From Neodothiora populina (Eukaryota), in contig NW_027191413.1 of assembly GCF_041146345.1 (NCBI RefSeq), positions 1,302,001 through 1,366,000 on the forward strand: a stretch of 64,000 bases of DNA. The letters are read 5' to 3'. Below are positions 1,145 to 13,384 of the stretch, piece by piece. The position numbers were made by a program, and so were the translations under genes. A model generated the notes under the pieces. The model searched no databases. It was not told the origin of the DNA and worked only from the letters and a program-made list of their open reading frames with translations. Numbering within the stretch: position 1 is the first letter of the stretch; every line of letters starts with the position of its first letter.

Positions 1145-2149
1145 ATGGCTTCCTCGGCAGCCCAAGATGAATACGACGACCTCATGGCCCGCAACAGAGC
1201 GGCGCGCACACATCATCCAGAAGACGCAGGCGGCTCAGATAACGACTCGGTGAGCCTGAGCGAGGAAGACGAAGCCTCGAGGCAAGAAACAGCCTACCCT
1301 TCGGCTCCCACACACAACTACTCCCGTTCACGGTCCTACCTCCCCAATCAGCGCTCATACAACAACACGGGTCCCAAGGGTGTCATAGCAGATGCTCAGG
1401 CCTTCCGAGAAGCACAGTCCGCTCACCGGGCCTCGATGTCAGCAAGTCGCGCATCCTCAGACGTCAACACTCTCGTGCAGCCATACGTCGAAAACCTCAG
1501 TCTCAACGACTCGGCATACGAAGGTGAAGTCGCGCTCAAGGAGATCAAAGAGGAAGAGTACGACAAGCTACGGGGAGAGGCCGACGAAGATCTGGAGGAG
1601 GACGAGGACGATTTCATGATGCAATGGCGACTGAGCAGGCTTCAGGAACTGCGAGGCAAGAGCGTCATAGCCAGTAACGCCGCCGCCGAGCGCTTCGGCA
1701 TGAGCAAGAGCGCGAAACTCATCTACGAGGGTCTGACAGCCGTAGACGGCGAAGGGTTTCTGGAGGTCGTAGACGGCAGCCCACGAGAAGTCACTGTCCT
1801 TGTGTTTGTCTGGGATGACCGAAGCGAAGTCAGCAGTATGGTCGAGGACTGCATCCGGCAATTGGCGAGGAAGCACAAGACCACGAGGTTCATCAAGCTG
1901 CATTACCAGGACGCGGAGATGGAACCCGCGGGCGTGCCGGCTGTGCTGGCGTATAAAGGTGGTGACAAATTCGCTGGGTTGATCCCGGTGGTCGAGGAGA
2001 TACCGGATGATGCAAACTTGAGCCCGGAGACGTTGGAGAGTGTGTTTCAAAGGTACGTCGCCGCTTTCTCCTATTCACTACGTTTCCCATCCTTGCGACA
2101 TGAGAGTTAACATTGCTGACAACTCCCCGACAGACATCAAATGTTGTAG
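1145..2149 (+). CDS. Phosducin-like protein (PhLP1/PhnA/BDM-1 type; G-beta-gamma chaperone)
   Basis: N-terminal motif NTGPKGVIADA, acidic segment then W-R-x-x-R-L-x-E-L, C-terminal thioredoxin-like domain (RFIKLHY..AEMEPAGVPAVLAYKGGD). Exons 1145-2052 and 2134-2149; intron 2053-2133 (GTACGT..GCTGAC..CAG) gives the C-terminus FQRHQML*. Confidence 0.92.
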
Positions 2150-2153
2150 AGAA

Positions 2154-2191
2154 AGAAGAAGAAGAAGAAGAAGAAGAAGAAGAAGAAGAAG
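2154..2191 (+). repeat. (GAA)n microsatellite, about 12 units, just after the phosducin stop codon
   Basis: Direct reading of the sequence. Confidence 0.95.
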
Positions 2192-2661
2192 CCTCACACT
2201 CTCTCCATGACCCGTCTTCGTCCCTTTGCATTCACCACTAGTCCTTCTCGCTTTCCCCTGCTTGGTTTGTGCTACGCCGCGCGTTCTGTTCTCTTCAAAT
2301 TATCGAATGATACCCCCCTCCCCCCTGTTCCAATCTGGTCTATATTTTTTTTTTTGGTTTGAGACAATGCGCTGTGTCCATTTTGCTTTTTGCTGCTGGT
2401 GCTGGTGCTGCTTGCTTGATGGCTTGCTTGATTGGTCGATTGACTGTTCAATTCCTGCATAGTTTGGGAAAAGGAACGATTATGGTGGCTCTATAGAAAA
2501 GGCATGGTCTCGGTGCATAGTCACAGATAGATGCATTACAGAAAAGAAATACGGAATCAAGCACAAGATCTTCAGTCATTCTATGTGATCTGGTATATGT
2601 CTTTTGCTTCCATATACATCTAATGGGTATCTTACAGGAACCAGAAGGAGGCATTTCTCTC

Positions 2662-3408
2662 TTATTCGACGACACTAATACCCACTCCACCCTTCTTCTT
2701 CTTCTTCTTGATGCCCATCATCTTGCGTAACACCTCGCCCTCCTCATCATCATCATCCTCTTTTTCATCCTTACCAGCCTCTTCCGTTCCCTTCCCATCT
2801 CCCATCCCCGTCATCTCCTCTTCCTCATCTTCGTCATCCGAACCAGCTCCCTCCCCCATCCACCCCAACCCATCCCCACCCTCCTCCTGTCCCTCCTTCT
2901 TCTCCTCCAGAACCCCGAGCCCAAGGTCCATCTCGATATACCCGCCCTTGGCGCCCTCGTCGACGTCCTCGAAGGTCTTGAGCGTGCCGTTCTGGCGCGC
3001 GGCGAGGATGTCGGCGTTTGAGGCGGCGAGTTTGGGCAGGAAGGATGAGAGGCGCGAGAGCAGGTCTGGAGCGCCTTGTTGTTGCTGTGAAGAAGAGGTG
3101 GGGGTCGTCGTCGTCGTCGTGGATGAGGAGGAGAGAGGGAGGTTGGAGGTGCGCATTAGGGGTTTTTGAACAGGGAGCGTTATTGGTGTTTGTTGGGGTT
3201 GGGGCAGTTCTGTGTCTGAGGAGTCCGAGTCCGAGTCCGAGTCCGAGTCGGAGGCTTCTGATGAGGAGGATGAGGAGGAGGACGATAGTTCGGAGTCCGA
3301 GGTCCTTGTCGATGGCTCGATTGATGTTGCTGGTGTGTTGGACGGTTCTCTAATGGGCAGAGTGGGCGTCGATGAGGACGTGGATGGTGTTGATGTGCTC
3401 GTCGTCAT
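2662..3408 (-). CDS. DUF4598 / NOPCHAP1-like (C12orf45-like) protein
   Basis: Low-complexity S/D/E ORF with the family-like motifs LLSRLSSFLPKLAASN and YIEMDLGLGVLEEK, plus a basic C-terminal tail. Confidence 0.75.
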   Translation of the reverse strand: MTTSTSTPSTSSSTPTLPIREPSNTPATSIEPSTRTSDSELSSSSSSSSSEASDSDSDSDSDSSDTELPQPQQTPITLPVQKPLMRTSNLPLSSSSTTTTTTPTSSSQQQQGAPDLLSRLSSFLPKLAASNADILAARQNGTLKTFEDVDEGAKGGYIEMDLGLGVLEEKKEGQEEGGDGLGWMGEGAGSDDEDEEEEMTGMGDGKGTEEAGKDEKEDDDDEEGEVLRKMMGIKKKKKKGGVGISVVE

Positions 3409-3795
3409 TGTGCTTGTGGACGTGTTGCTGTTGTCTTGGATTTGATATGAAGGAGTAGGGGCGAGGTTGTTTTGTTGTTATGCTTCCTCTTTGAAGTGCA
3501 AGAAGAATAAAACAAATTCGAATGATATCGCGTTCTGGTATAGATGATGGAAGATAAGGTAAGATATGTTGAAATGAAGGTCAAAGGACTACTTTTATTT
3601 TCTTTATTCTTTAATCCGGGAAAAAGTAGAGTTCGATAAGATAAGAAGACAATCTGGTTATGATGAAATAATAAAGACCCTTTATTGTAGCTTATCGATT
3701 GTCAAGACTCCATCATCATCTCTTGAACTAACGGACATATCAGATTACAACATAATCCGTACTGTTCACCATCTCCAAAGTCATCATCATATACA

Positions 3796-5341
3796 TCAGT
3801 AAAAGTGCACAGCGAGACGCTTGTTGGCCGAGGCTATGTCCGGCACTCCAGTCCCACCCTGCACGTATGCCTTGTGCTTGATACTCTCTTGAGCCTTGAT
3901 GGCCGCCTCATTGGGGCCACCCATCCAATTACCCATGGTGCTAGCAATGACTCTCTTCCCGTCGCTTCGAGTCACAAATGCAGCAGGAGGAGCATTGATG
4001 GGCGTCGTGAATCCACCACTGACATTGGTTCCGTCTGTACTCGAAATCGTGGCAGGTCCGTCATTGCCTTGCTCTACGCTGATGTCGCCGTGCGCCTTGT
4101 GGTCATTACTCGCTTCAATCTGGAACTCAGCCCAAGTCGCTGGAATCAGCTTTCCCCTTTGCACTCGACCTTTGAACGACGTAGCCAGGCTGACGAACGT
4201 GGTGTGACCTGCTGCTACCTTGACAGACTTGAGAGGATGGTCAAAGTTGGCTCCAGCGGTGCCGTTGCCATTCCAGTAATTGTCGAAGAAGAAATATGTC
4301 TCTTCTTGCTTGGACTTGTTGCTAAGCAGGATTCCTGGTGCCTTGCCGTTGTCTTCATTGCCAGCGGGAGCCAACTGGGCTGATAGTGCCTTGACACGTT
4401 CGACAGGATGCAACGACACTCCTACGTGCTCTGTACTTGCGACAACAGAAGAAGCTGGAGATGATAACAGTCAGATACGTCGAAAACAAGACTAGATACG
4501 CAAGAAACAAAAACTAACGTCTGAGATTGATGACCTGCCCGATCTGCAGCTTCTTTGCATCAACACCTGGATTGGCCTTTTCAATCTCTTCCACCGCGAT
4601 ACCATGATCTTTCGCAATCGAGAAGAACGTGTCTCCCGCCTTGACGGTATATTTATGGGCATCTTCAGGAAGGTGACCATTGGCTGGCTTGACTCCATCA
4701 GGGGTCGCATCACCATCACTGTAGGTGACAATGATGTCTCTGTTCCCCTTGCCTGCTTTGCTCTAGGCGACACAGTCAGCATTGATTACTAACATGCTCA
4801 GACACTTCATTACCTGTTGGTTGTCGCCATCGTCTCCTGTTTTGCCATTCCAGGCTCCCGTATCGATATATGTCTTGCCCTCCGCGAATCTGCGAACAAA
4901 CGCGATCAGTGCAGGCTTGTTGGTCGTTCCGTCCATTCTGACAACGTTTCCTGCTTTGTCAAAGTGCAGCGAGGGCTTGACCGAGTCTCTTGTCTTCTGG
5001 TCTGCCTTCTTCCACTCTTCGTTCAGACCTTGCATGAAAGTGGCATCTCCCTTCATCGTACTGGGTTCAGCGACTTGCATGACTGTTACGTTACCTCCGG
5101 CACCCACGATGTTGCTGATGTCGATAAAGTCGTTGCCTCCAAATCCTTTCTTGGTGATTTCAGCCTCCTCCCCTTCATGTCCGTCGTGCAATGCAATGAT
5201 GGCGCCAGAAGCACCGTCAGGGGCGGCTATCTTGCTGGTCCCGTGAGCTGGCACGGTGATATTTGCATTGCCATTGAAGCCATGGACTTCGAACTCCTGC
5301 TTGTGGTCCGACTTGTTGTGGATGGAGATGGTATGAGACAT
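3796..5341 (-). CDS. 476-aa protein: putative thaumatin-like domain + LysM + putative thaumatin-like domain; no signal peptide, no Cys
   Basis: Exons 5341-4814, 4762-4519, 4454-3796. Introns 4813-4763 (GTAATG..GCTGAC..TAG) and 4518-4455 (GTTAGT..CTGAC..CAG) join ORF-track ORFs 4763..5341 and 3796..4419 in frame. The middle exon encodes a LysM (YTVKAGDTFFSIAKDHGIAVEEIEKANPGVDAKKLQIGQVINL, 4651-4523). The thaumatin-like call rests on motifs (GRVQR..PATWAEF..HGDISVEQG; EEAEI..DFIDISNIVG) and is less certain than the gene model. Confidence 0.8.
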
Positions 5342-6532
5342 GTTGGATCAGAAGATAAGCTTGTAGGTCTATTAATTTATTGTATACGAGGTAAGTCTTT
5401 TATTTCCAGATCACCAAACCGTGCTCCTCTCTCTTCTTATATCTTTGCCTACGATGCCGAAGGACAAGTCCACTTGCCACAGCCACAACATGACCTACCT
5501 GAAAGCGCAGCATCGTACCCTACGATGGAGTATAGATGTTCGTGGTTCCCGTTGGCAACCATTACGTACGGCTTAGCAGTTGACGAATATGTAATTCCAA
5601 CATGACCTATCCAATGGTTATCATTAGCTGTTATAGTCATACAGGAATGTTGCCACAGATCCGAAGTAAGACGGTGGCTGATGAGATGTGAAGGATGGAC
5701 TTTGTGTCTGCCTGATAGACAGCCTCATCTCCTCGACAAAATAGGCAAGCGGACTAAAGACTTCAGCTCTTACGTGTTATACGAACTTTAGCGCCCTGCT
5801 CCTCCGCCAGTAAGATCTGTTATCACGAACAAGCCCAAAACCGGGAAGCTGGGTTGGCTGCAGTCAGGTGGTCATCGTGCATACACACATGCATATAATA
5901 TCTTGGCATGTTGTATTGGGCCTTTGCAGCAACCTCACGTCCTGCTCCAGCCTTGGGTCCTTATTCTTCGACCCAAGACAGTCGAACCATGTGTATATTC
6001 GCAAATGACCCAGGACTGGCATTGGGTGTAGCAAGGGTTGACCGGTAGGGCGGAGCGAGGCTATCATCAGCGCTACCTGCAGTCGTACTGCATGAACCGC
6101 TCAGACTAAGTGAATCTTTCCACCTGATCACAACCTCACCTCTCTTATGATTCAATACACTGTGCAAGATACCGCATCCCTATTCCGTTCGCAATAACGG
6201 CCCCAAACCTTCATGCGATGGCACATCCGCATCCTGATCCCCTCTTTCAAACGTACAGGAGCAACGCAACCGAGGACGGTATGTGAGGCCACTCGGCAAC
6301 CTACACGGTGTCTGACCATACTTTACGGCCTTGCGAGAATGGTACGCCTGAGGCGCAGCTCGAGCTGGGAAGATCAGCTGTAGCATGGTGCTGTTACTGC
6401 GTCACAAATACAAGATACAAGCAATAAGAATGCACCGAGCCTATATCTCGCGTGTACCCCTTGACCAGACCTCGAAAGAGCACTGTGATATTGTCAGATC
6501 TCCCCCTCTAACAAAACAATCAAACACGCACC

Positions 6533-7294
6533 ATGGCTCACAAAAGATCCATCTCCTGGTCCTACCAAAATACCGCGAACCCAACAACAGCAGCAGCCAT
6601 AAACCAGCTGAACTTCCACGGGCCCATCAAATCCCTCAGCAACTGGGAACTATGGAGTCCCCCAGAGCTCAAAAACCGCCTGACCTTCCGTCCCATGGTC
6701 CATGACCCATCGCGCTTCACGAGCGCCGAATGGGCCTCGACGAGCAAATCGACGCGCAACGCAATCATCCACTTCTACAACGAGCCGGAGCGCATCCCCG
6801 TGAGTCCCTCGGACGCCGCGCAAGCCTGGACCTCCAAAATGCTACCTCTTCGCCACGAAAACCGCGGCAACCGACTCGTCAGCCCGTCCGTAGCAGGCGA
6901 CAGCGCGGGCGCCTCGTGGCTGCACAAATGGATGGACATGATCAGCAGCAAAGACGCCGCCGCGCACAAACCCGATTTTTTGGGTCTGCACTACTACGGC
7001 ACCTCGAGCGCCGCCATAATTGCCTGTCTGACCAGCATGCACGATAAGTACCACTTGCCTGTCATCGTGTCCGAGTGGGCGTGCACGTCGCGCGACGAGC
7101 ATGAGGTGCTGCAGTTCACGGTCGCGATGACGGATTGGATGGATCGCACGGACTGGGTGTTTGAGTATACGCTTTTTGGACTCACTGCTGCGCCCGTCGA
7201 TGGGTTTGTCTCGCCCGCTGCGCAGTTGATGAGGGGGGATAGGTTTACGCCGCTTATGAGGAAGTATATGGATGAGGTGCCTATGAAGTTGTAG
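6533..7294 (+). CDS. Glycoside hydrolase family 128 (Glyco_hydro_cc/Asl1-like) beta-1,3-glucanase, no signal peptide
   Basis: Intronless 253-aa ORF with KR-x-x-x-W start, NW, FRPMV, NEPE (acid/base Glu), LVSPS, PDFLGLHYY and PVIVSEWA (nucleophile Glu) motifs. Confidence 0.88.
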   Translation: MAHKRSISWSYQNTANPTTAAAINQLNFHGPIKSLSNWELWSPPELKNRLTFRPMVHDPSRFTSAEWASTSKSTRNAIIHFYNEPERIPVSPSDAAQAWTSKMLPLRHENRGNRLVSPSVAGDSAGASWLHKWMDMISSKDAAAHKPDFLGLHYYGTSSAAIIACLTSMHDKYHLPVIVSEWACTSRDEHEVLQFTVAMTDWMDRTDWVFEYTLFGLTAAPVDGFVSPAAQLMRGDRFTPLMRKYMDEVPMKL

Positions 7295-8517
7295 GGATTG
7301 CGTTCATTTTGACTTTTGCGGTTTTTTGGTTTCTCGAGGGCCGCTGGGAATGGAAGTGATTGGGCATTTGCTTTGGCTGATGGCAAGTGGTGGGATTATG
7401 GCTGTCGGTTCTCGGGATTGTTCTCGATTGATAGTCATCTGTTTTCTGTTCACTCGTCATATTTCCGGGACTGTAACACAGTCTGCCATGACACTTTCAT
7501 AGTAATCTTGCGATAACGAACTCGACACCCTGGACGAGATCATGTGTAGTAAGAAACAAATTCCGCTGGTCCCGCTGGGTCAAGTGAAGTCATGCACTTT
7601 TCCTCAGGAGAATGACTCTTCTCACTAACCGCCGCACAAGCCTGAGAACTTCCTTTCACCTCCAAGGAAATAGCAGCCCATGCTAAAAACGTCAATGGGA
7701 TACATAGATCTCAAACCCCAATCAACCAAACTACTGAACAGCATCAAGGACGCCTGAAACGAACCAGTGACTTCAGGCGTCCATCTTGGCCCCCTCTTTT
7801 ACTCTGACCGTCTTTCGCTACTAGTCAGCTGAGGTCCGTCTAAGCTCACGTCACTTTCGTTTCTGGGCTATGTCTACGCTGGTTTTGTGTTTCACAAGAG
7901 GACGCCTCACGCATGGCCTAGGTAGTTGGTCTGAAGGCTGTCAAATGACTTATTCTCGGCGGGGCTGAGGAGAAGGAGACGCTAACATGGTGTAGTCGTT
8001 GGGGATTTGTGGTTACATTGCTGGACTTGTATGTTTTCCTTGGTATCTGTGTAGTAGTAGCAGAAGGATGAAGGAGAAGCGTGGCTTACTGCTGGATCGG
8101 ATGTGTTTATGGCTAGGTCTGTTATTGGATATGTTCGCTTTTCTTGTTGGTGTTCAGCTGCTGATATGTAATGGCTCAGGCTTACTTTTCGATTCGTACT
8201 GTGGTGAAGCTACTGTGTCTGACCTTTTGAACAAGGCGCAGTGAGGTACTGCAAGTTGCTGCTCGCTCCTTTCTGGTCTCAGCTGTCGAGGGGGAGTATG
8301 ACTCTGAGTTGATGAGCAATCAGGCCTCGAGGCTGATGATTGTGGTCATGGTTTAGCCGAGGTTGTACTGACACCAAATTCGGATCGATAGTAAATGAAT
8401 AGTGTTCGGTATAAAGAGGTTTGTTTCGTCGAGCAGGGCAAAGGCCGTTCTTTCAAACAACAAACACCATCTTCTTTACCTCCGGATTAAATACTCATAA
8501 GATCTTCCCACACAGCA

Positions 8518-9423
8518 ATGTCACAATACGTAATCAAAGCAGGTGACACTCTGTTCGACATTGCCAAAGCGAACGGCACAACCGTCGAAGCCATCGATGC
8601 TGCAAATCCGGGCATCAACGCCTCCAATCTGCAAGTTGGCGAAAAGATCAATCTCTCCTCGAGCTCCAAAACCACAAAGTACACGATCAAAGCCGGAGAC
8701 ACATTGTTTGAGATCGCAAAGGCCCACAACACCACAGTCAAAGCGATCGAAGCTGCCAATCCTGGTATCAAAGCCGATAACCTACAAGTGGGTCATCAAA
8801 TCAACATCCCTTCTGCTGGAGGAGCCTCGAGTGGTGGTGGTAGTGGTGGTGCAGGATCTCATCCCGGAGAGGGTGGCAAGGAGGTAGGCCAAGGTTATAA
8901 AGCATACAGCGGGCCTGCCTCAAACTATCCTCATCCTTCGACCTGGGCATCGTACGACACTCTTGTTTCCCAGAACCATCGTCTGATGAAATTCCATGAT
9001 TCGGACTCCGAGATTCAGCTTATAGTCAAGGATGTCAAGACCGTGGCCAATGAGTCTGGTACCGATGCCCGCGTCATTCTATGCACCATCATGCAGGAAA
9101 GTGGTGGAGACCCTCGTGTCGTGGTGACGAACAATGGTGTTCGAAACCCGGGTCTCATGCAGTCTCACAATGGAGTGGGGTGGAACGCAAATGATCCGGC
9201 TGGCAGCATCCTGCAGATGATTAGAGATGGAACGGAAGGGACCAAGGACGGTGATGGTCTCAAGCAGCTGTACAAGCGCTACGGCAACTACTATGAGGCC
9301 ATGAGAGATTACAATTCGGGGTCTGTGAACCAAAATGACTTGAATGATCCAGTAGGAGCTACACCCAAGTACGTCGAGGATATCGCCAACAGGCTCATGG
9401 GTCATGTTTGGAACAACATGTAG
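8518..9423 (+). CDS. 2x LysM + lysozyme-like (SLT/GH23-type) muramidase/chitin-active protein, no signal peptide
   Basis: LysM repeats at 8527-8655 and 8680-8811, a Gly-rich linker, then the lytic-transglycosylase/goose-lysozyme motifs IMQESGG, GLMQ and AMRDYNSG. TATAAA at 8410-8415. Confidence 0.88.
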   Translation: MSQYVIKAGDTLFDIAKANGTTVEAIDAANPGINASNLQVGEKINLSSSSKTTKYTIKAGDTLFEIAKAHNTTVKAIEAANPGIKADNLQVGHQINIPSAGGASSGGGSGGAGSHPGEGGKEVGQGYKAYSGPASNYPHPSTWASYDTLVSQNHRLMKFHDSDSEIQLIVKDVKTVANESGTDARVILCTIMQESGGDPRVVVTNNGVRNPGLMQSHNGVGWNANDPAGSILQMIRDGTEGTKDGDGLKQLYKRYGNYYEAMRDYNSGSVNQNDLNDPVGATPKYVEDIANRLMGHVWNNM

Positions 9424-10164
9424 GAAAGCATCGAGTGGGCGCCGTCGCAGGCTGTCAGAGGATGGTTTACTTGGTCTTGCATTGTACTGACTGCATCATT
9501 TCGTTTGCTTGATTGTTAGTACATAGTTTACTCCAATATTACGCTTTACTCCGATTCCGTTTCGACCTAAGACATGCAGCTAGTAGCTTAAGCATGCCGT
9601 GACGCCAGGAGCTAAGAGGCTGAGAAGACGATGTGCTGCATGTGTAGTGTATCCTTCCACCCAAAAGAACTGTTGGTATTGGAGCTGTCGTCAGTGAGAT
9701 ATCAGGCACTGACTATCATATACGGCCCCCGCACCACATGTCATGGTATCAGTAACGGCAAGTCATCCAAGCGCGGGTCGATGCGCCAACAAGAGCCTGC
9801 ATGATCTTCCTCCTTGTAGATCAAATCAGCAGGTACCGTAGAGACTGCGCAACGACGGTCTTGACAGGTCCAGTCATCCGGTGGCTTAGCCGATCAGGCA
9901 ACCCTTCAGCTGTGGCCTTACGCGGCGAACTGTAGCGTAAGGATTAAATTCAGGTGCAACTTCTATTTTCGTGCAGCTCAGCTCACGATTCTGCTTTGTT
10001 TCGACCTGATATCCGGTTGCTGAAGGCCTGAAGGTATTGTGGTGGCTGGATAGCAATGTCATTCGCGTCGGCAGTGATGGCTTTTCGCCGTATAAGTAGG
10101 CCCGGGTCGTCCTCCTCAATGCTCTAGAAACCACAATCATCCACTGCTCAAACCTACCGCAATC

Positions 10165-10659
10165 ATGACGCCTGACGAAACCTCTGCTTTGAACAGGAAC
10201 AACGCTGCCCGTAAGACAAAGGGTTGTCCACCACTTCACTGGGACGCCAACCTTGCCCGAGAAGCTACGGCGTATGCCCAAAAGCTCGCTAGCACACGAG
10301 AAATGGTCCACTCTGGCACGAAGGGCGAAGGCGAGAACCTTTACATGACATCGCCGCGCAATGATCCCTTAGACGCTGGTGTCAAGGCCTGGCTGGATGA
10401 AGCTGCAAATTACCATGGACAGAAAATTGGAGAAGGTGACTTTGGAAGTTATGGCCATTACAGTGAGTGTATTATCCCTATTCGAGAGCGCTTGGTTTCT
10501 ACGATCAAGATGAGATATACTGACAGCAACCTAGCCCAATGCATGTGGAAAAGCACTACTCATGTCGGATTGGGCCATGCCAAAGATTCAAAGGGCGATA
10601 TCTGGGTTGTAGGGAGATTCACCCCACCAGGTAACTGGACAGGGCAGAAGCCGTATTGA
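10165..10659 (+). CDS. CAP/SCP (PR-1-like) protein, 140 aa after splicing, no signal peptide
   Basis: Motifs PLHW, HSG..GENL, W-x-DE, GHYTQCMW and FTPPGN. The 72-nt intron 10463-10534 (GTGAGT..CTGAC..TAG) restores GHYTQ. TATAAG at 10091-10096. Confidence 0.92.
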   Translation: MTPDETSALNRNNAARKTKGCPPLHWDANLAREATAYAQKLASTREMVHSGTKGEGENLYMTSPRNDPLDAGVKAWLDEAANYHGQKIGEGDFGSYGHYSECIIPIRERLVSTIKMRYTDSNLAQCMWKSTTHVGLGHAKDSKGDIWVVGRFTPPGNWTGQKPY

Positions 10660-11421
10660 AGAGAGTTGCATCATAATGTTCGAATTCCTTAGCTATCAAC
10701 ACAAAATTGCTCAAGTACAGCATAATACCTAGTTGCAACATATAGACGAATGATGAAGACATCAGATATCCTACCGCTGTGATATGAAGTCAGAAGCAGC
10801 GTGACTCAGCAATTGTGGGGTCGTACTAGACTCGGCGCTTAAACAAGCCGGGAACGGTGACCTGAACCTACATTAAGGTACCAAATGGACCACAGCTGCC
10901 GCCTTGTGAACGAGGGGTCCATTCTTATTGTCCTTGATCAATGGGGTGAGACCTATCGTCTTCAAATCGGATCTTCTGGAACCAGTCCGTGATAATATTC
11001 GCATCAGCACAAGAGTTGACGACACCCCATTTTTGCTTCTGATCTTACGAACATACTTTCATATCGAAGCACTGAAGTCGTTACACAGTGCTCCGTATTA
11101 CTTCGAGCTATTAGGGCGCGATAAAGTAAATACCCACGACACAGGTGCTTCTCACAGCTATATTTACTGTACCTGTGTAAGTTCGAGACATCTTATTCAA
11201 TCATTGTAGAAACGTCAAATACAATGCAAAGCCACACACTCGTCATTCCGAGTATTATATTGCACGCAGATATTACATAATGTTGCGGTCCCTCGAACTT
11301 TATGCATGAAGCCTTACCTCCGGCCTTTTTTGATTGATGCTGACATGTTTAGTTTGACTGCAGACGTGAATCAGTCGGACTTTTGACACACTACAAAAGT
11401 GTTCTTCTCAAGTGCATAGAC

Positions 11422-12681
11422 ATGGCGATTCCTCGTCTCAATGTGAATGGCCTGCCTGGTGCTTCGGCGGAACAGGCAGCCGCTACGCAGTCCCCAGCAC
11501 GAGGCAAGGAAATGAGAGCAAATCTATTGTCAAAGTTACGTCCGCCACCCTTGGTACATTCATGGGACTTCTGGCACGATCGCCAGAATCGCCAGGAACG
11601 TAGAAAGGACGCAAGCAAGGACTCCAAGCCCTCCGAGGCCGAGGGATTTGCCAATGAGTCTGAACTAAGTGCAGCCGCAAGGGAAGGACTAGAAAGTCAC
11701 AAGTATGAAGATCGCCTTGTGCACCTTGCAGAAGTGACAGACGTCCGCGCTTTCTGGAACTTGTTCAACAACTTTGATATCTCGACGCTCCCACTGCGTG
11801 ACTCGGTCCACCTCTTCCACAGAGGTGTAAAACCCGTATGGGAAGACGCACGCAACGCTCGAGGCGGCGCCTGGACATTTCGAGTGCCGAAGGAGAAGGC
11901 ACAGGAATTCTGGAAGCAGATCTGTATGCTGGCTATAGGCGAACGCCTTCAGGCAGCAGTAGAAAGCGAACGGAAAACCTTCCGCGATGACATCTGCGGC
12001 GTGTCTCTCAGTGTACGCTTTACCAGCACCCTGATCCAGATCTGGAATCGCGACGCAAGACACGAAGAAGGAATCGCCATGATCCTCTCTACGGTTCTCG
12101 AAAACATCAGTCCAGAGCTTAAGCCTAAGGAAAACAGCTACTACTACAAACCACACGATGAGCATGCTGGTTTCAACACCAATGCGGCGCCCAGTGGCGA
12201 ATTCTCCCCACAAGAAAATAGAGATATGTCTCCACCACCAGGCACAAGCCACGGACCTCAGACTTACCGAATGGACACAGGAGAAGCAGCATCTCGACCT
12301 ATAGAAGTGCAGGGCATGCAAGACCAAACCAATAAGGAGCAGAGTGGAAGAACGCTGCCAACATTCCCACGGTCTACTAAAGGCGTTGGCTTGATGTCTA
12401 CCAGGCCGGGCCAGGGCCTTGACGAGTCGAAGACGGCGGAGATTGTCTCGAGGGTAGCGCCTCCAGGACTCAAGGGCGAGCAGTCAGGGGTTGGAGATGG
12501 GGGCGATCCATTAGCAGCTGTAGCAAAGGGCACTGGGTACTATGGGCAGGACGAGGCGGTAAAAGACATCGAAGAAAGTCTGACCAGTATGAAAGAAGCT
12601 ATGGACAAGATTGCAGAAAAGGATCATCACATTCAGGGGATCGAGGGACAAGAAGTGGATGAAAAGATGACTGACGGCTAG
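11422..12681 (+). CDS. Translation initiation factor eIF4E family protein (class II/4EHP-like) with long C-terminal extension
   Basis: PPLVHSWDFWHDR, YEDRL (Tyr at the Trp56-equivalent position), FWNLFNNF, LFHRGVKPVWED..NARGGAW, DDICGVSLSVR, IQIWN. The first in-frame ATG is 11422; upstream exons are not excluded. Confidence 0.88.
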   Translation: MAIPRLNVNGLPGASAEQAAATQSPARGKEMRANLLSKLRPPPLVHSWDFWHDRQNRQERRKDASKDSKPSEAEGFANESELSAAAREGLESHKYEDRLVHLAEVTDVRAFWNLFNNFDISTLPLRDSVHLFHRGVKPVWEDARNARGGAWTFRVPKEKAQEFWKQICMLAIGERLQAAVESERKTFRDDICGVSLSVRFTSTLIQIWNRDARHEEGIAMILSTVLENISPELKPKENSYYYKPHDEHAGFNTNAAPSGEFSPQENRDMSPPPGTSHGPQTYRMDTGEAASRPIEVQGMQDQTNKEQSGRTLPTFPRSTKGVGLMSTRPGQGLDESKTAEIVSRVAPPGLKGEQSGVGDGGDPLAAVAKGTGYYGQDEAVKDIEESLTSMKEAMDKIAEKDHHIQGIEGQEVDEKMTDG

Positions 12682-13384
12682 CCAGTCAAGAGGTGGGGCT
12701 AGAGGTTGTCTTTGCGCCAGTCTTATTTACATTCAGATCAGACGCCTACGATTGAGCGTGCACGGTGCCAGCGGATCTACTCTTGAAACGTGTCGCGTAG
12801 TGGTCGATAGATGTGACAGTTAAAGTATGGACGAATCATATTTCGTCACTCCAAGTTTACCCAGTCAGTACTGAGACTATAGTGACACTGTTAGATTTTC
12901 AGCATCTAGAAGGATACATTCCGAGAAGGCATATATCCGCCCAACAGTATAGCGTGGTGTGGGTTGAGCACGTCGCAATCTGATGTTTCTTTGTATAGAC
13001 GTTATGATTTCCGAAAGCGGGAAGGCGTGCACCGCCACAGCGCGCATGCCGCAAGGACCTGAGTTGTTGTATTACGAATGCGTAAAGGCGGACATTTGTC
13101 GCCCATACACTCTTTATCTACCTCCCGAAACCATTCACAGTCAGTCTGGGCAGAGAACAGTAAGTTCGCGGTTTTATAGTTGTCTCTGGAGTGGTTCTGA
13201 TCATGCATTATTGCAGACTTGAAGCCTTTGCATAAATCTATAATTATCGGCACCTTTGTATAAGTGCGAAGCAAGTAGCAGGAACAGATAGAGAAGTGGC
13301 AGCGGCAGCGACAACAGGAGCAGCAAGGAGGGAGAGAAAGAGCTAAACAGACACATACCATGAGCAGGTGAACAACCAACGAGT

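Follow-up and report, generated by a model that had tools for sequence, protein, structure and literature searches.

Four adjacent genes of Neodothiora populina encode leaderless, cysteine-poor members of cell-wall protein families: a plausible cytosolic wall-attack kit

A 64,000-nucleotide stretch of the Neodothiora populina genome (assembly GCF_041146345.1, contig NW_027191413.1, positions 1,302,001 to 1,366,000; here termed the window) contains four consecutive genes, G1 to G4, which encode: a protein with two thaumatin folds and a central LysM domain; a GH128 protein; a protein with two LysM domains and a GH23-like domain; and a small CAP protein. These are four adjacent leaderless, cysteine-poor genes of wall-associated families. 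Their grouping goes beyond chance because parts of it recur in other fungal lineages and because its domains are naturally fused elsewhere; as recurrent linkage and fusion, the module is real. To read it as a cytosolic wall-attack kit is plausible. Our leading reading, held tentatively, is a stored autolysis/endolysis kit that attacks β-1,3-glucan/chitin walls from the cytoplasmic side.

To our knowledge, leaderless wall hydrolases of fungi are known as isolated cases only (ChiB; Eng2 and Agn2), and debate over their significance continues. In the present case, four to five folds thought of as extracellular have all become leaderless and poor in cysteine, and are repeatedly linked or fused across fungal classes. 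The module bears on the way fungi dissolve their own walls from within, whether in autolysis, recycling of hyphal ghosts or spore release. It bears equally on the defence of the cytoplasm against walled intruders, and on how potentially suicidal enzymes are kept harmless.

Results

Gene models

The genes and the divergent intergenic region are arranged as follows.

G1, 3796..5341, minus strand: exons 5341-4814, 4762-4519 and 4454-3796, introns 4813-4763 and 4518-4455; 476 amino acids
G1-G2 intergenic region, 5342..6532, 1.19 kb: between divergent G1 (-) and G2 (+); presumed bidirectional promoter
G2, 6533-7294, plus strand: intronless; GH128 beta-1,3-glucanase-family protein, 253 amino acids
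G3, 8518-9423, plus strand: intronless; two LysM domains and a GH23-like domain, 301 amino acids
G4, 10165..10659, plus strand: exons 10165-10462 and 10535-10659; CAP/PR-1-like protein, 140 amino acids

All introns of G1 and G4 have GT..AG ends and CTGAC-type branch sites. Two database proteins, P0124 (locus tag ending in 2793) and P0244 (locus tag ending in 2796), are letter-for-letter the spliced products of G1 and G4, as expected if the public annotation has the same four consecutive genes.

Folds and families of the four proteins

G1 is composed of three domains.

N-terminal thaumatin-fold domain, 4706..5335, minus strand: amino acids 3-195, crossing intron 1; AlphaFold2 model
Central LysM, 4520..4657, minus strand: amino acids 212-257, within a variable linker; PF01476
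C-terminal thaumatin-fold domain, 3799..4338, minus strand: amino acids 297-476; AlphaFold2 model

The sole Pfam domain in G1 is the LysM (PF01476, 5.2e-13, residues 214-256), which also superposes on plant LysM with a VIA Z of 8.2. The thaumatin model PF00314 gives no match, even at E<=10, for P0124 or for P0001, P0002 and P0145. The AlphaFold2 model of G1 (predicted local distance difference test 87.9) nevertheless contains two thaumatin folds, assigned with a Foldseek probability of 1.00. Residues 297-476 align with thaumatin 3e3s (VIA Z 16.1, root-mean-square deviation 2.5 Å over 160 amino acids; Foldseek E 2e-7), and residues 3-202 align with osmotin 4l2j (VIA Z 15.4, 2.5 Å over 160 amino acids). 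GH64 beta-1,3-glucanases match these folds too, at Z 9-12. Between the two thaumatin-fold domains there is no sequence similarity (E 2.6).

G1 has at least 155 relatives, and 48 columns are invariant across 111 aligned sequences. In the N-terminal domain, D74 is invariant and E61 and D71 are nearly so; in the C-terminal domain, E367, D381 and D389 are invariant; these are candidate acidic cleft residues. The LysM is missing from most relatives and is present in Elsinoe and in L023, a locus described below. As a thaumatin-like protein, G1 has the fold and lacks the Pfam signature, the disulfide framework and the signal peptide. Canonical thaumatin-like proteins carry 16 (or 10) conserved cysteines; the G1-family median is 3, and G1 itself has none. 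G1 reveals a large, well-conserved double thaumatin-fold family, in Ascomycota and Mycena, for which there is no Pfam model.

Two observations on this family stand apart. Its only members outside the ascomycetes are in several Mycena (Basidiomycota), at ~58-65% identity (P0162, P0168, P0182), which could reflect gene transfer. In the annotation of Westerdykella ornata, P0178 (840 amino acids) has a double thaumatin-fold part of the G1 type and, C-terminal to it, a JmjC-domain protein; this may be a merger of gene models.

The GH128 identity of G2 is firm at the level of family: PF11790 matches at 6.4e-32 (111.5 bits, cut-off 21), PDB entry 6ub8 at 1e-71 over the full length, and LeGLU1 (6ub2) at 3e-11. 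The native part of 6ub8, after a 20-residue tag, begins at the same Met as G2. We take 6ub8, 6uba and 6ubb to be GH128 subgroup VI enzymes from Aureobasidium namibiae; these solved fungal structures resemble G2 in the full-length match, the start and the NEP and SEW glutamates. Specifically, G2 E84 (NEP, 6782-6784) and E181 (SEW, 7073-7075) align with the NEP and SE[WF] glutamates of 6ub8 and LeGLU1. The GH128 family uses two catalytic glutamates (PMC13413497), and the NEP and SEW motifs would hold the candidate catalytic glutamates of G2. G2 has both the Pfam score and the glutamate pair of the family, and its glucanase activity is a prediction from sequence.

G3 has the following features.

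LysM1, 8527-8655, plus strand: PF01476
LysM2, 8680-8811, plus strand: PF01476
GH23-like domain, 8869-9408, plus strand: from the SLT Pfam model and fold search
E194, 9097-9099, plus strand: invariant residue

The two LysM of G3 are clear (Pfam 7.4e-29), and LysM domains of G1 and G3 match the LysM fold at Z 8-9. The remainder of the protein matches the SLT model PF01464 marginally (1.1e-4; 22.2 bits, cut-off 21.3). This model also matches the relatives P0252, P0275, P0312 and P0286. Because a G3 profile gave only a weak goose-lysozyme match in the PDB (E 0.027), a fold search was needed. In the AlphaFold2 model (predicted local distance difference test 86.5), residues 118-297 match cod g-type lysozyme 3gxk (VIA Z 10.9), MltC (Z 10.9) and the Ralstonia GH23 chitinase (Z 9.7), values that are moderate for a helical domain. 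The top 31 fold matches are all g-type lysozymes, lytic transglycosylases or GH23 chitinase. G3 is assigned to GH23 by its marginal Pfam score and by this lysozyme-like helical fold. It is not a LysM effector, being leaderless and carrying a catalytic-type domain. Q193 and E194 are invariant and S195 nearly so among 88 relatives; E194 is a candidate for the catalytic glutamate of the GH23 E-S motif. G3 is ~60% identical across classes, and a pattern-limited scan of prokaryote genomes with its profile returned one marginal 20-residue match and no close bacterial source.

G4 is a minimal CAP domain (PF00188, 8.5e-17, 62.5 bits). Among solved CAP proteins it matches plant PR-1 9lyt (6e-19), human GAPR-1 1smb (9e-18) and Pry1 (1.7e-12). 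CAP membership is supported by Pfam and homology; G4 has no secretion signal and, with two cysteines, no classical disulfides. Where plant PR-1 has a cysteine before PPGN, the aligned stretch of G4 reads VVGRFTPPGN. The leaderless animal CAP protein GAPR-1/GLIPR2 is likewise a small single CAP domain, and it is among the top feature neighbours of G4 in the ESM Atlas (0.95). GAPR-1 is membrane-bound via N-myristoylation; G4, in contrast, starts MTPDE and has no Gly2. In lichen-lineage relatives of G4 the N terminus reads MGNPPT, a possible myristoylation site.

Absence of a leader characterises the subfamilies

The cysteine counts of G1 to G4 are 0, 2, 1 and 2. Their highest N-terminal 10-residue Kyte-Doolittle means are at most 0.73, and their highest 19-residue means anywhere are at most 1.13, leaving no signal-like or membrane segment. 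This leader test is a crude hydrophobicity rule under which several obvious signal peptides fall just below the first threshold, and the counts given below are approximate.

Analysis of start sites in relatives is consistent with genuine absence of a leader. For G1, 111 of the 120 listed relatives were aligned, nine fused or very long ones being left out, and 109 of these begin within 8 residues of the first strand. The other two carry a hydrophilic 30-residue extension and, in an assembled-run gene call, an 82-residue extension with a hydrophobic stretch. For G3, 88 of 120 listed relatives, comparable in length and coverage, were used. In 73 of them the protein begins within the LysM; 14 are extended by hydrophilic stretches rich in Pro, Lys and His, and in one the extension, of 13 residues, is borderline. 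All four close relatives of G4 are leaderless, the GH128 parts of fusion proteins and 6ub8 begin at the same position as G2, and every syntenic ortholog in the other loci is leaderless. The leaderless state is a subfamily property rather than a gene-model slip.

The 14 extended G3 relatives, several of them from lichen fungi, carry 27-62 additional residues, mostly PKH/PEPKH-like repeats.

G3 relatives with extension: P0028, P0041, P0045, P0048, P0051, P0054, P0057, P0061, P0078, P0086, P0093, P0114, P0118, P0120

A first-pass annotation of the window, made from its sequence alone, had described G1 as thaumatin-like/LysM/thaumatin-like, G2 as GH128, G3 as a two-LysM, lysozyme-like enzyme and G4 as CAP, all of them leaderless and poor in cysteine. 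Each of these descriptions is borne out: the first by the AlphaFold2 folds and PF01476, although Pfam misses the thaumatin domains; the second by PF11790 and 6ub8; the third by Pfam and the modelled fold; the fourth by PF00188 and the PR-1 and GAPR-1 matches; and the last by the hydrophobicity profiles and cysteine counts.

Secreted and anchored forms of the GH23-like domain provide a comparison. The domain falls into 673 representative clusters, of which 150 were listed and 98 were usable (Met start, full domain, more than 15 residues before the domain). Signal-like representatives (56 of 98) have a median of 4 cysteines in the domain and those with an internal membrane segment (9 of 98) a median of 3, as against 2 in the 33 without a hydrophobic segment (Mann-Whitney p 8.6e-6). 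In a quick tree, G3 lies in a clade of 15 sequences with a Shimodaira-Hasegawa-like approximate likelihood ratio test (SH-aLRT) support of 96, and 14 of them score as leaderless. The fifteenth, P0253, was flagged as non-leaderless; this is a false flag, the protein starting inside its LysM. As secreted and anchored paralogs coexist with the leaderless group and have more cysteine, the latter looks like a separate adaptation to a reducing compartment. The fungal GH23-like family, with its parallel secreted, membrane-anchored and leaderless forms, appears to be little described in the literature searched.

These data also bear on ordinary wall remodelling by non-classical secretion, in which case the missing signal would say nothing about the site of action. 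Such a route is discussed in PMC3527191, and it is as extracellular wall proteins that the four families are best known. The coexistence of secreted and membrane-anchored GH23-like paralogs that keep more cysteine argues against it, and a thaumatin fold with no cysteine is hard to square with extracellular life; we regard this explanation as unlikely.

Several individual GH23-like forms are of separate interest. The genes at L043:8909-10585, L026:7950-9233, L044:9872-10570, L032:9572-10525 and L056:7785-8606 all encode extra conserved cysteines. Among their products are a type-II membrane protein whose N-terminal, cytoplasmic part is long, two classical secreted proteins, and one with a C-terminal, cysteine-containing fungal LysM. 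P0276, P0277 and P0283, which have lipoprotein-like N termini and in one case a ricin-B lectin domain, group with leaderless P0273 and P0275 (SH-aLRT 99) and have a single cysteine in common; together they may be a bacterial branch near the low-cysteine group.

Partial clusters recur in other lineages

A scan of metagenome contigs with the G3 profile yielded 80 loci. Where at least 4 kb of upstream DNA was available, 3 of 11 G3-type loci (L004, L012, L023) have G1(-)-G2(+)-G3(+) in the order and orientation of the window, including the divergent G1/G2 arrangement. Where at least 1.5 kb lay downstream, 3 of 19 (L005, L020, L024) have a G4 homolog within 1.3 kb past G3; in L017, a weak CAP-like match lies at a distance of 4.4 kb. 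Some of these loci are redundant: L004 and L012 represent one lineage, L005 and L020 another (94.9% over 3.4 kb), and L022 is the same as L023. By sequence, L023 closely resembles a Cladosporium protein (91%), and the L004/L005 group is nearest to lichen-forming fungi (69%). The G1-G2-G3 and G3-G4 arrangements each recur in two further lineages, and in another class.

In the window, G1 to G4 are flanked on one side by a NOPCHAP1-like gene on the minus strand (2662-3408) and on the other by the gene for eIF4E (11383-12681), as anticipated by the earlier description of housekeeping neighbours. Four flank genes of the window (phosducin-like, NOPCHAP1, eIF4E, DHHC) were found in none of the 80 loci. 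All four cluster genes together were likewise found in no other locus; where G4 is present the contig has no DNA upstream, and where G1-G2 are present G4 is missing. Comparison of L004:9930-11042 with L005:1-1117 (93.5% identity) places G3 plus only 260 nucleotides in the common part, followed by G4 in L005 and an unrelated 346-amino-acid open reading frame (ORF) in L004. This marks either a rearrangement breakpoint or two paralogous copies. Among 62 ORFs scanned near G3 orthologs lacking G1, G2 and G4, there was no consistent fifth partner.

Natural fusions join the same domains

The G1-type C-terminal domain is found behind a leaderless GH128 in P0164, P0177 and P0220, with relatives in Diaporthe helianthi, D. 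batatas and Apiospora; the GH128 part of P0220 is 43% identical to G2 (2e-70). P0286 of Diaporthe ilicicola combines CAP, two LysM and SLT, and its CAP is 51% identical to full-length G4 (1e-46). In the ESM Atlas, a 53-member Ascomycota cluster of CAP+GH128 proteins (422 amino acids) ranks first among the structural neighbours of G2 and likewise of G4, and serves here as a lead only. LysM repeats reach five per protein (P0252, P0005). In Diaporthe, the module appears as two fusion proteins that mirror the window pairs G1/G2 and G3/G4. A complex prediction for G2 with G4 scored 0.00, which gives no verdict and was used neither way. No description of this cluster or of its fusions was found in the open-access literature searched.

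Shared regulation was sought in nine promoter regions from the window and its orthologs, and no shared 6-8-mer exceeded shuffled sequence; CAGCTGA, which came closest, is present in 7 of the 9 regions, with a shuffle maximum also of 7. The proposal of a functional module is backed by recurrent linkage in other lineages and by natural fusions, whereas no shared promoter word backs its co-regulation. The first-pass annotation had named orthologs unlinked in all other genomes as fatal to its view; this is not the outcome, although the linkage is partial.

One alternative is that four unrelated genes lie side by side by chance. Most G3 loci elsewhere have no partners, as chance would predict, and there is no shared promoter word. 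Set against this are the recurrence of gene order and orientation in other classes, where the flanks are not conserved, and three kinds of pairwise fusion, which make coincidence very improbable.

Discussion

A stored wall-lysis kit as the leading interpretation

Because they have neither an export signal nor the disulfide framework of their secreted relatives, the G1-G4 proteins most likely fold and stay in the cytoplasm. If they serve as a stored autolysis/endolysis kit, the division of labour would involve: thaumatin-fold domains and GH128, which would address beta-1,3-glucan; LysM and GH23-like domains, which would address N-acetylglucosamine (GlcNAc) polymers, that is, chitin and possibly peptidoglycan; and the small CAP domain, which would accompany them. 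An intact plasma membrane would keep these proteins from the wall of their own cell. They would act once this barrier falls, in starvation autolysis, programmed compartment death or the release of internal spores, and would then dissolve the wall from inside. The target is probably a fungal-type wall rather than bacteria, because a constant beta-1,3-glucanase partner is combined with binding and cleavage of GlcNAc polymers. Candidate catalytic residues are kept in both putative enzymes (G2 E84 and E181; the invariant E194 of G3). The data establish the domain identities, the conserved leaderless and cysteine-poor state, the conserved candidate catalytic residues and the recurrent linkage and fusion, whereas localisation, substrates, timing and purpose are inferred.

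By the hydrophobicity rule, the cluster contains signal-less members of wall-hydrolase families of the ChiB and Eng2 type. S. pombe Eng2 and Agn2 are not known to have signal peptides. They belong to GH81 and GH71, rather than to GH128, the thaumatin fold or GH23, and their genes are unclustered. Eng2 is described as hydrolysing the ascus wall to free the spores, and as otherwise residing in a cytoplasmic complex (PMC8429772). The likeness to the role proposed here is that a beta-1,3-glucanase breaks down the wall of the mother cell from within (PMC8429772, PMC3627985).

ChiB of A. niger and A. nidulans also has no signal peptide (PMC3527191, Nitsche et al.). It resembles G1-G4 as a leaderless member of a normally secreted wall-hydrolase family and is strongly induced on carbon starvation (PMC3527191). 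The authors speculate that leaderless hydrolases build up in dying compartments, are released at death and recycle the hyphal ghost (PMC3527191). ChiB differs in being a single GH18 gene, for which the sections of that article on ChiB describe no linked glucanase, LysM, thaumatin-fold or CAP partner (PMC3527191).

A third precedent is A. fumigatus AfExg9, called an intracellular GH55 exo-beta-1,3-glucanase with an added LT_GEWL domain (PMC3627985). By that description, it joins a glucanase to a goose-lysozyme/transglycosylase-type domain, the same pairing as G2 with G3 (PMC3627985). AfExg9 is unlike them in being GH55 rather than GH128 and a fusion rather than neighbouring genes, and it is compared by description only. 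Published precedents favour autolysis/endolysis no less than defence.

A number of points weigh against a stored autolysis/endolysis kit. Linkage is partial (G1 and G2 in 3/11 loci, G4 in 3/19), and most G3 loci have no partners. In Elsinoe batatas the G1- and G3-family genes lie apart on the same contig, with tags 581 apart, and in Letrouitia transgressa, Xanthoria mediterranea and Diaporthe ilicicola the two families are on different contigs. Cysteine-free, bacterial-type LysM and the GH23 fold also fit peptidoglycan, which an autolysis kit does not need, and the kit leaves the role of CAP unexplained. Leaderless proteins can leave the cell by non-classical routes, as discussed for ChiB (PMC3527191). 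The signal test applied to G1-G4 and their relatives is a crude one. ATG-started ORFs with hydrophobic peptides lie upstream of all four genes, which leaves some probability of upstream signal exons; none of these ORFs is conserved near orthologs (tblastn, all E >0.1), and they were set aside as chance ORFs.

Defence and oligosaccharide processing as alternatives

The same structural facts would also suit a cytoplasmic defence module, in which stored proteins strike walled invaders that get into a hypha or break it open, whether hyphae of a mycoparasite, endohyphal bacteria or the gut microbes of a grazer, while the fungus's own wall is safe outside the membrane. The possible targets span bacterial walls (LysM with GH23) and fungal or oomycete walls (GH128, thaumatin fold), with CAP in addition.

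Plant pathogenesis-related (PR) proteins (PR-1, PR-2, PR-5, lysozyme/chitinase) are alike in their folds and, presumably, their targets. They are secreted or vacuolar and rich in disulfides, whereas G1-G4 are leaderless and cysteine-poor, with a glucanase of family GH128 in place of GH17, to which PR-2 belongs. Plant PR-1 is described as acting with PR-5 (PMC10189770), and CAP/PR-1 proteins as binding sterols and inhibiting sterol auxotrophs (PMC10189770). Fungal lectins are established as cytoplasmically stored defence proteins (PMC10512399). Together with lipases and protease inhibitors, they form a group that is cytoplasmic and signal-less and acts after ingestion (PMC10512399). These are toxins against animal glycans and enzymes, not wall hydrolases, and in the literature searched no clustered module of G1-G4 composition is found among described cytoplasmic defence proteins. 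Secreted fungal LysM effectors such as Ecp6 share the LysM fold and GlcNAc-oligomer binding, and Ecp6 is among the top matches for the LysM part. The effectors have a signal peptide, cysteine-stabilised LysMs and no catalytic domain; G3 has cysteine-free, bacterial-type LysMs and a GH23-like domain.

Genomic data bear on defence in both directions. The families are patchy (Mycena and Ascomycota) and variable in copy and LysM number, as is typical of accessory or defence genes, and the G3 ortholog of L066 adjoins HET-domain genes. Strong conservation (48 invariant columns across 111 G1 sequences; ~60% G3 identity across classes) is unlike that of arms-race genes, and the prokaryote genome scan, with its single marginal match, gave no close bacterial relatives hinting at recent antibacterial acquisition. 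On balance, we consider a defence role to be somewhat unlikely, although it is the strongest competitor of the leading reading.

One specific form of defence would be a cytosolic "inside-out" immune kit of filamentous ascomycetes, made up of cysteine-free PR-5, glucanase, lysozyme and PR-1, that separates self from non-self by topology alone. It would bind and lyse whatever walled organism enters the cytoplasm, be it an endobacterium, an intrahyphal hypha or the hypha of a mycoparasite. We hold this form to be doubtful. If it were true, the fusions (thaumatin fold-GH128, CAP-GH128, CAP-LysM-GH23) would be different wirings of one machine.

Another possibility would be cytosolic processing or sensing of imported laminari- or chito-oligomers for recycling or signalling. 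The cluster does encode leaderless predicted glycosidases with intact candidate active sites, and intracellular GH55 enzymes are predicted in A. fumigatus (PMC3627985). Up to five LysM and tandem thaumatin folds suggest avid binding of polymers rather than small sugars, and no transporter is linked in the window, L004 or L023; this role is quite improbable.

Further observations

Apart from any role in the fungus, scaffolds of the thaumatin-fold, CAP and lysozyme-like type that are free of cysteine have a possible use in cytosolic expression.

Near some G3 orthologs, other wall-related or HET genes were seen. In L014, a GH55-like gene (1889-4027, minus strand) with two PF12708 stretches is divergent from the G3 ortholog at 4988-5956; a classical signal peptide (MKLKVPVFFFCTLVVANT...) sets its product apart from the A. 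fumigatus GH55+GEWL fusion, which is described as intracellular. L023 contains a GH18 fragment. In L066, a HET gene (8600-9697) lies directly beside the G3 ortholog, another (3-1265) is 8 kb away, and a GH72 glucanosyltransferase gene (11862-13168) lies downstream.

In the window, G3 has a TATAAAG box at -108. Before this box, 270-520 nucleotides upstream of G3, an 81-codon ORF (7999-8244, plus strand) encodes a strongly hydrophobic stretch; the ORF has no conserved counterpart near orthologs. Elsewhere the window is ordinary core genome, with genes for a DHHC palmitoyltransferase, DNA polymerase delta, Rad5, squalene/phytoene synthase and EFL1.

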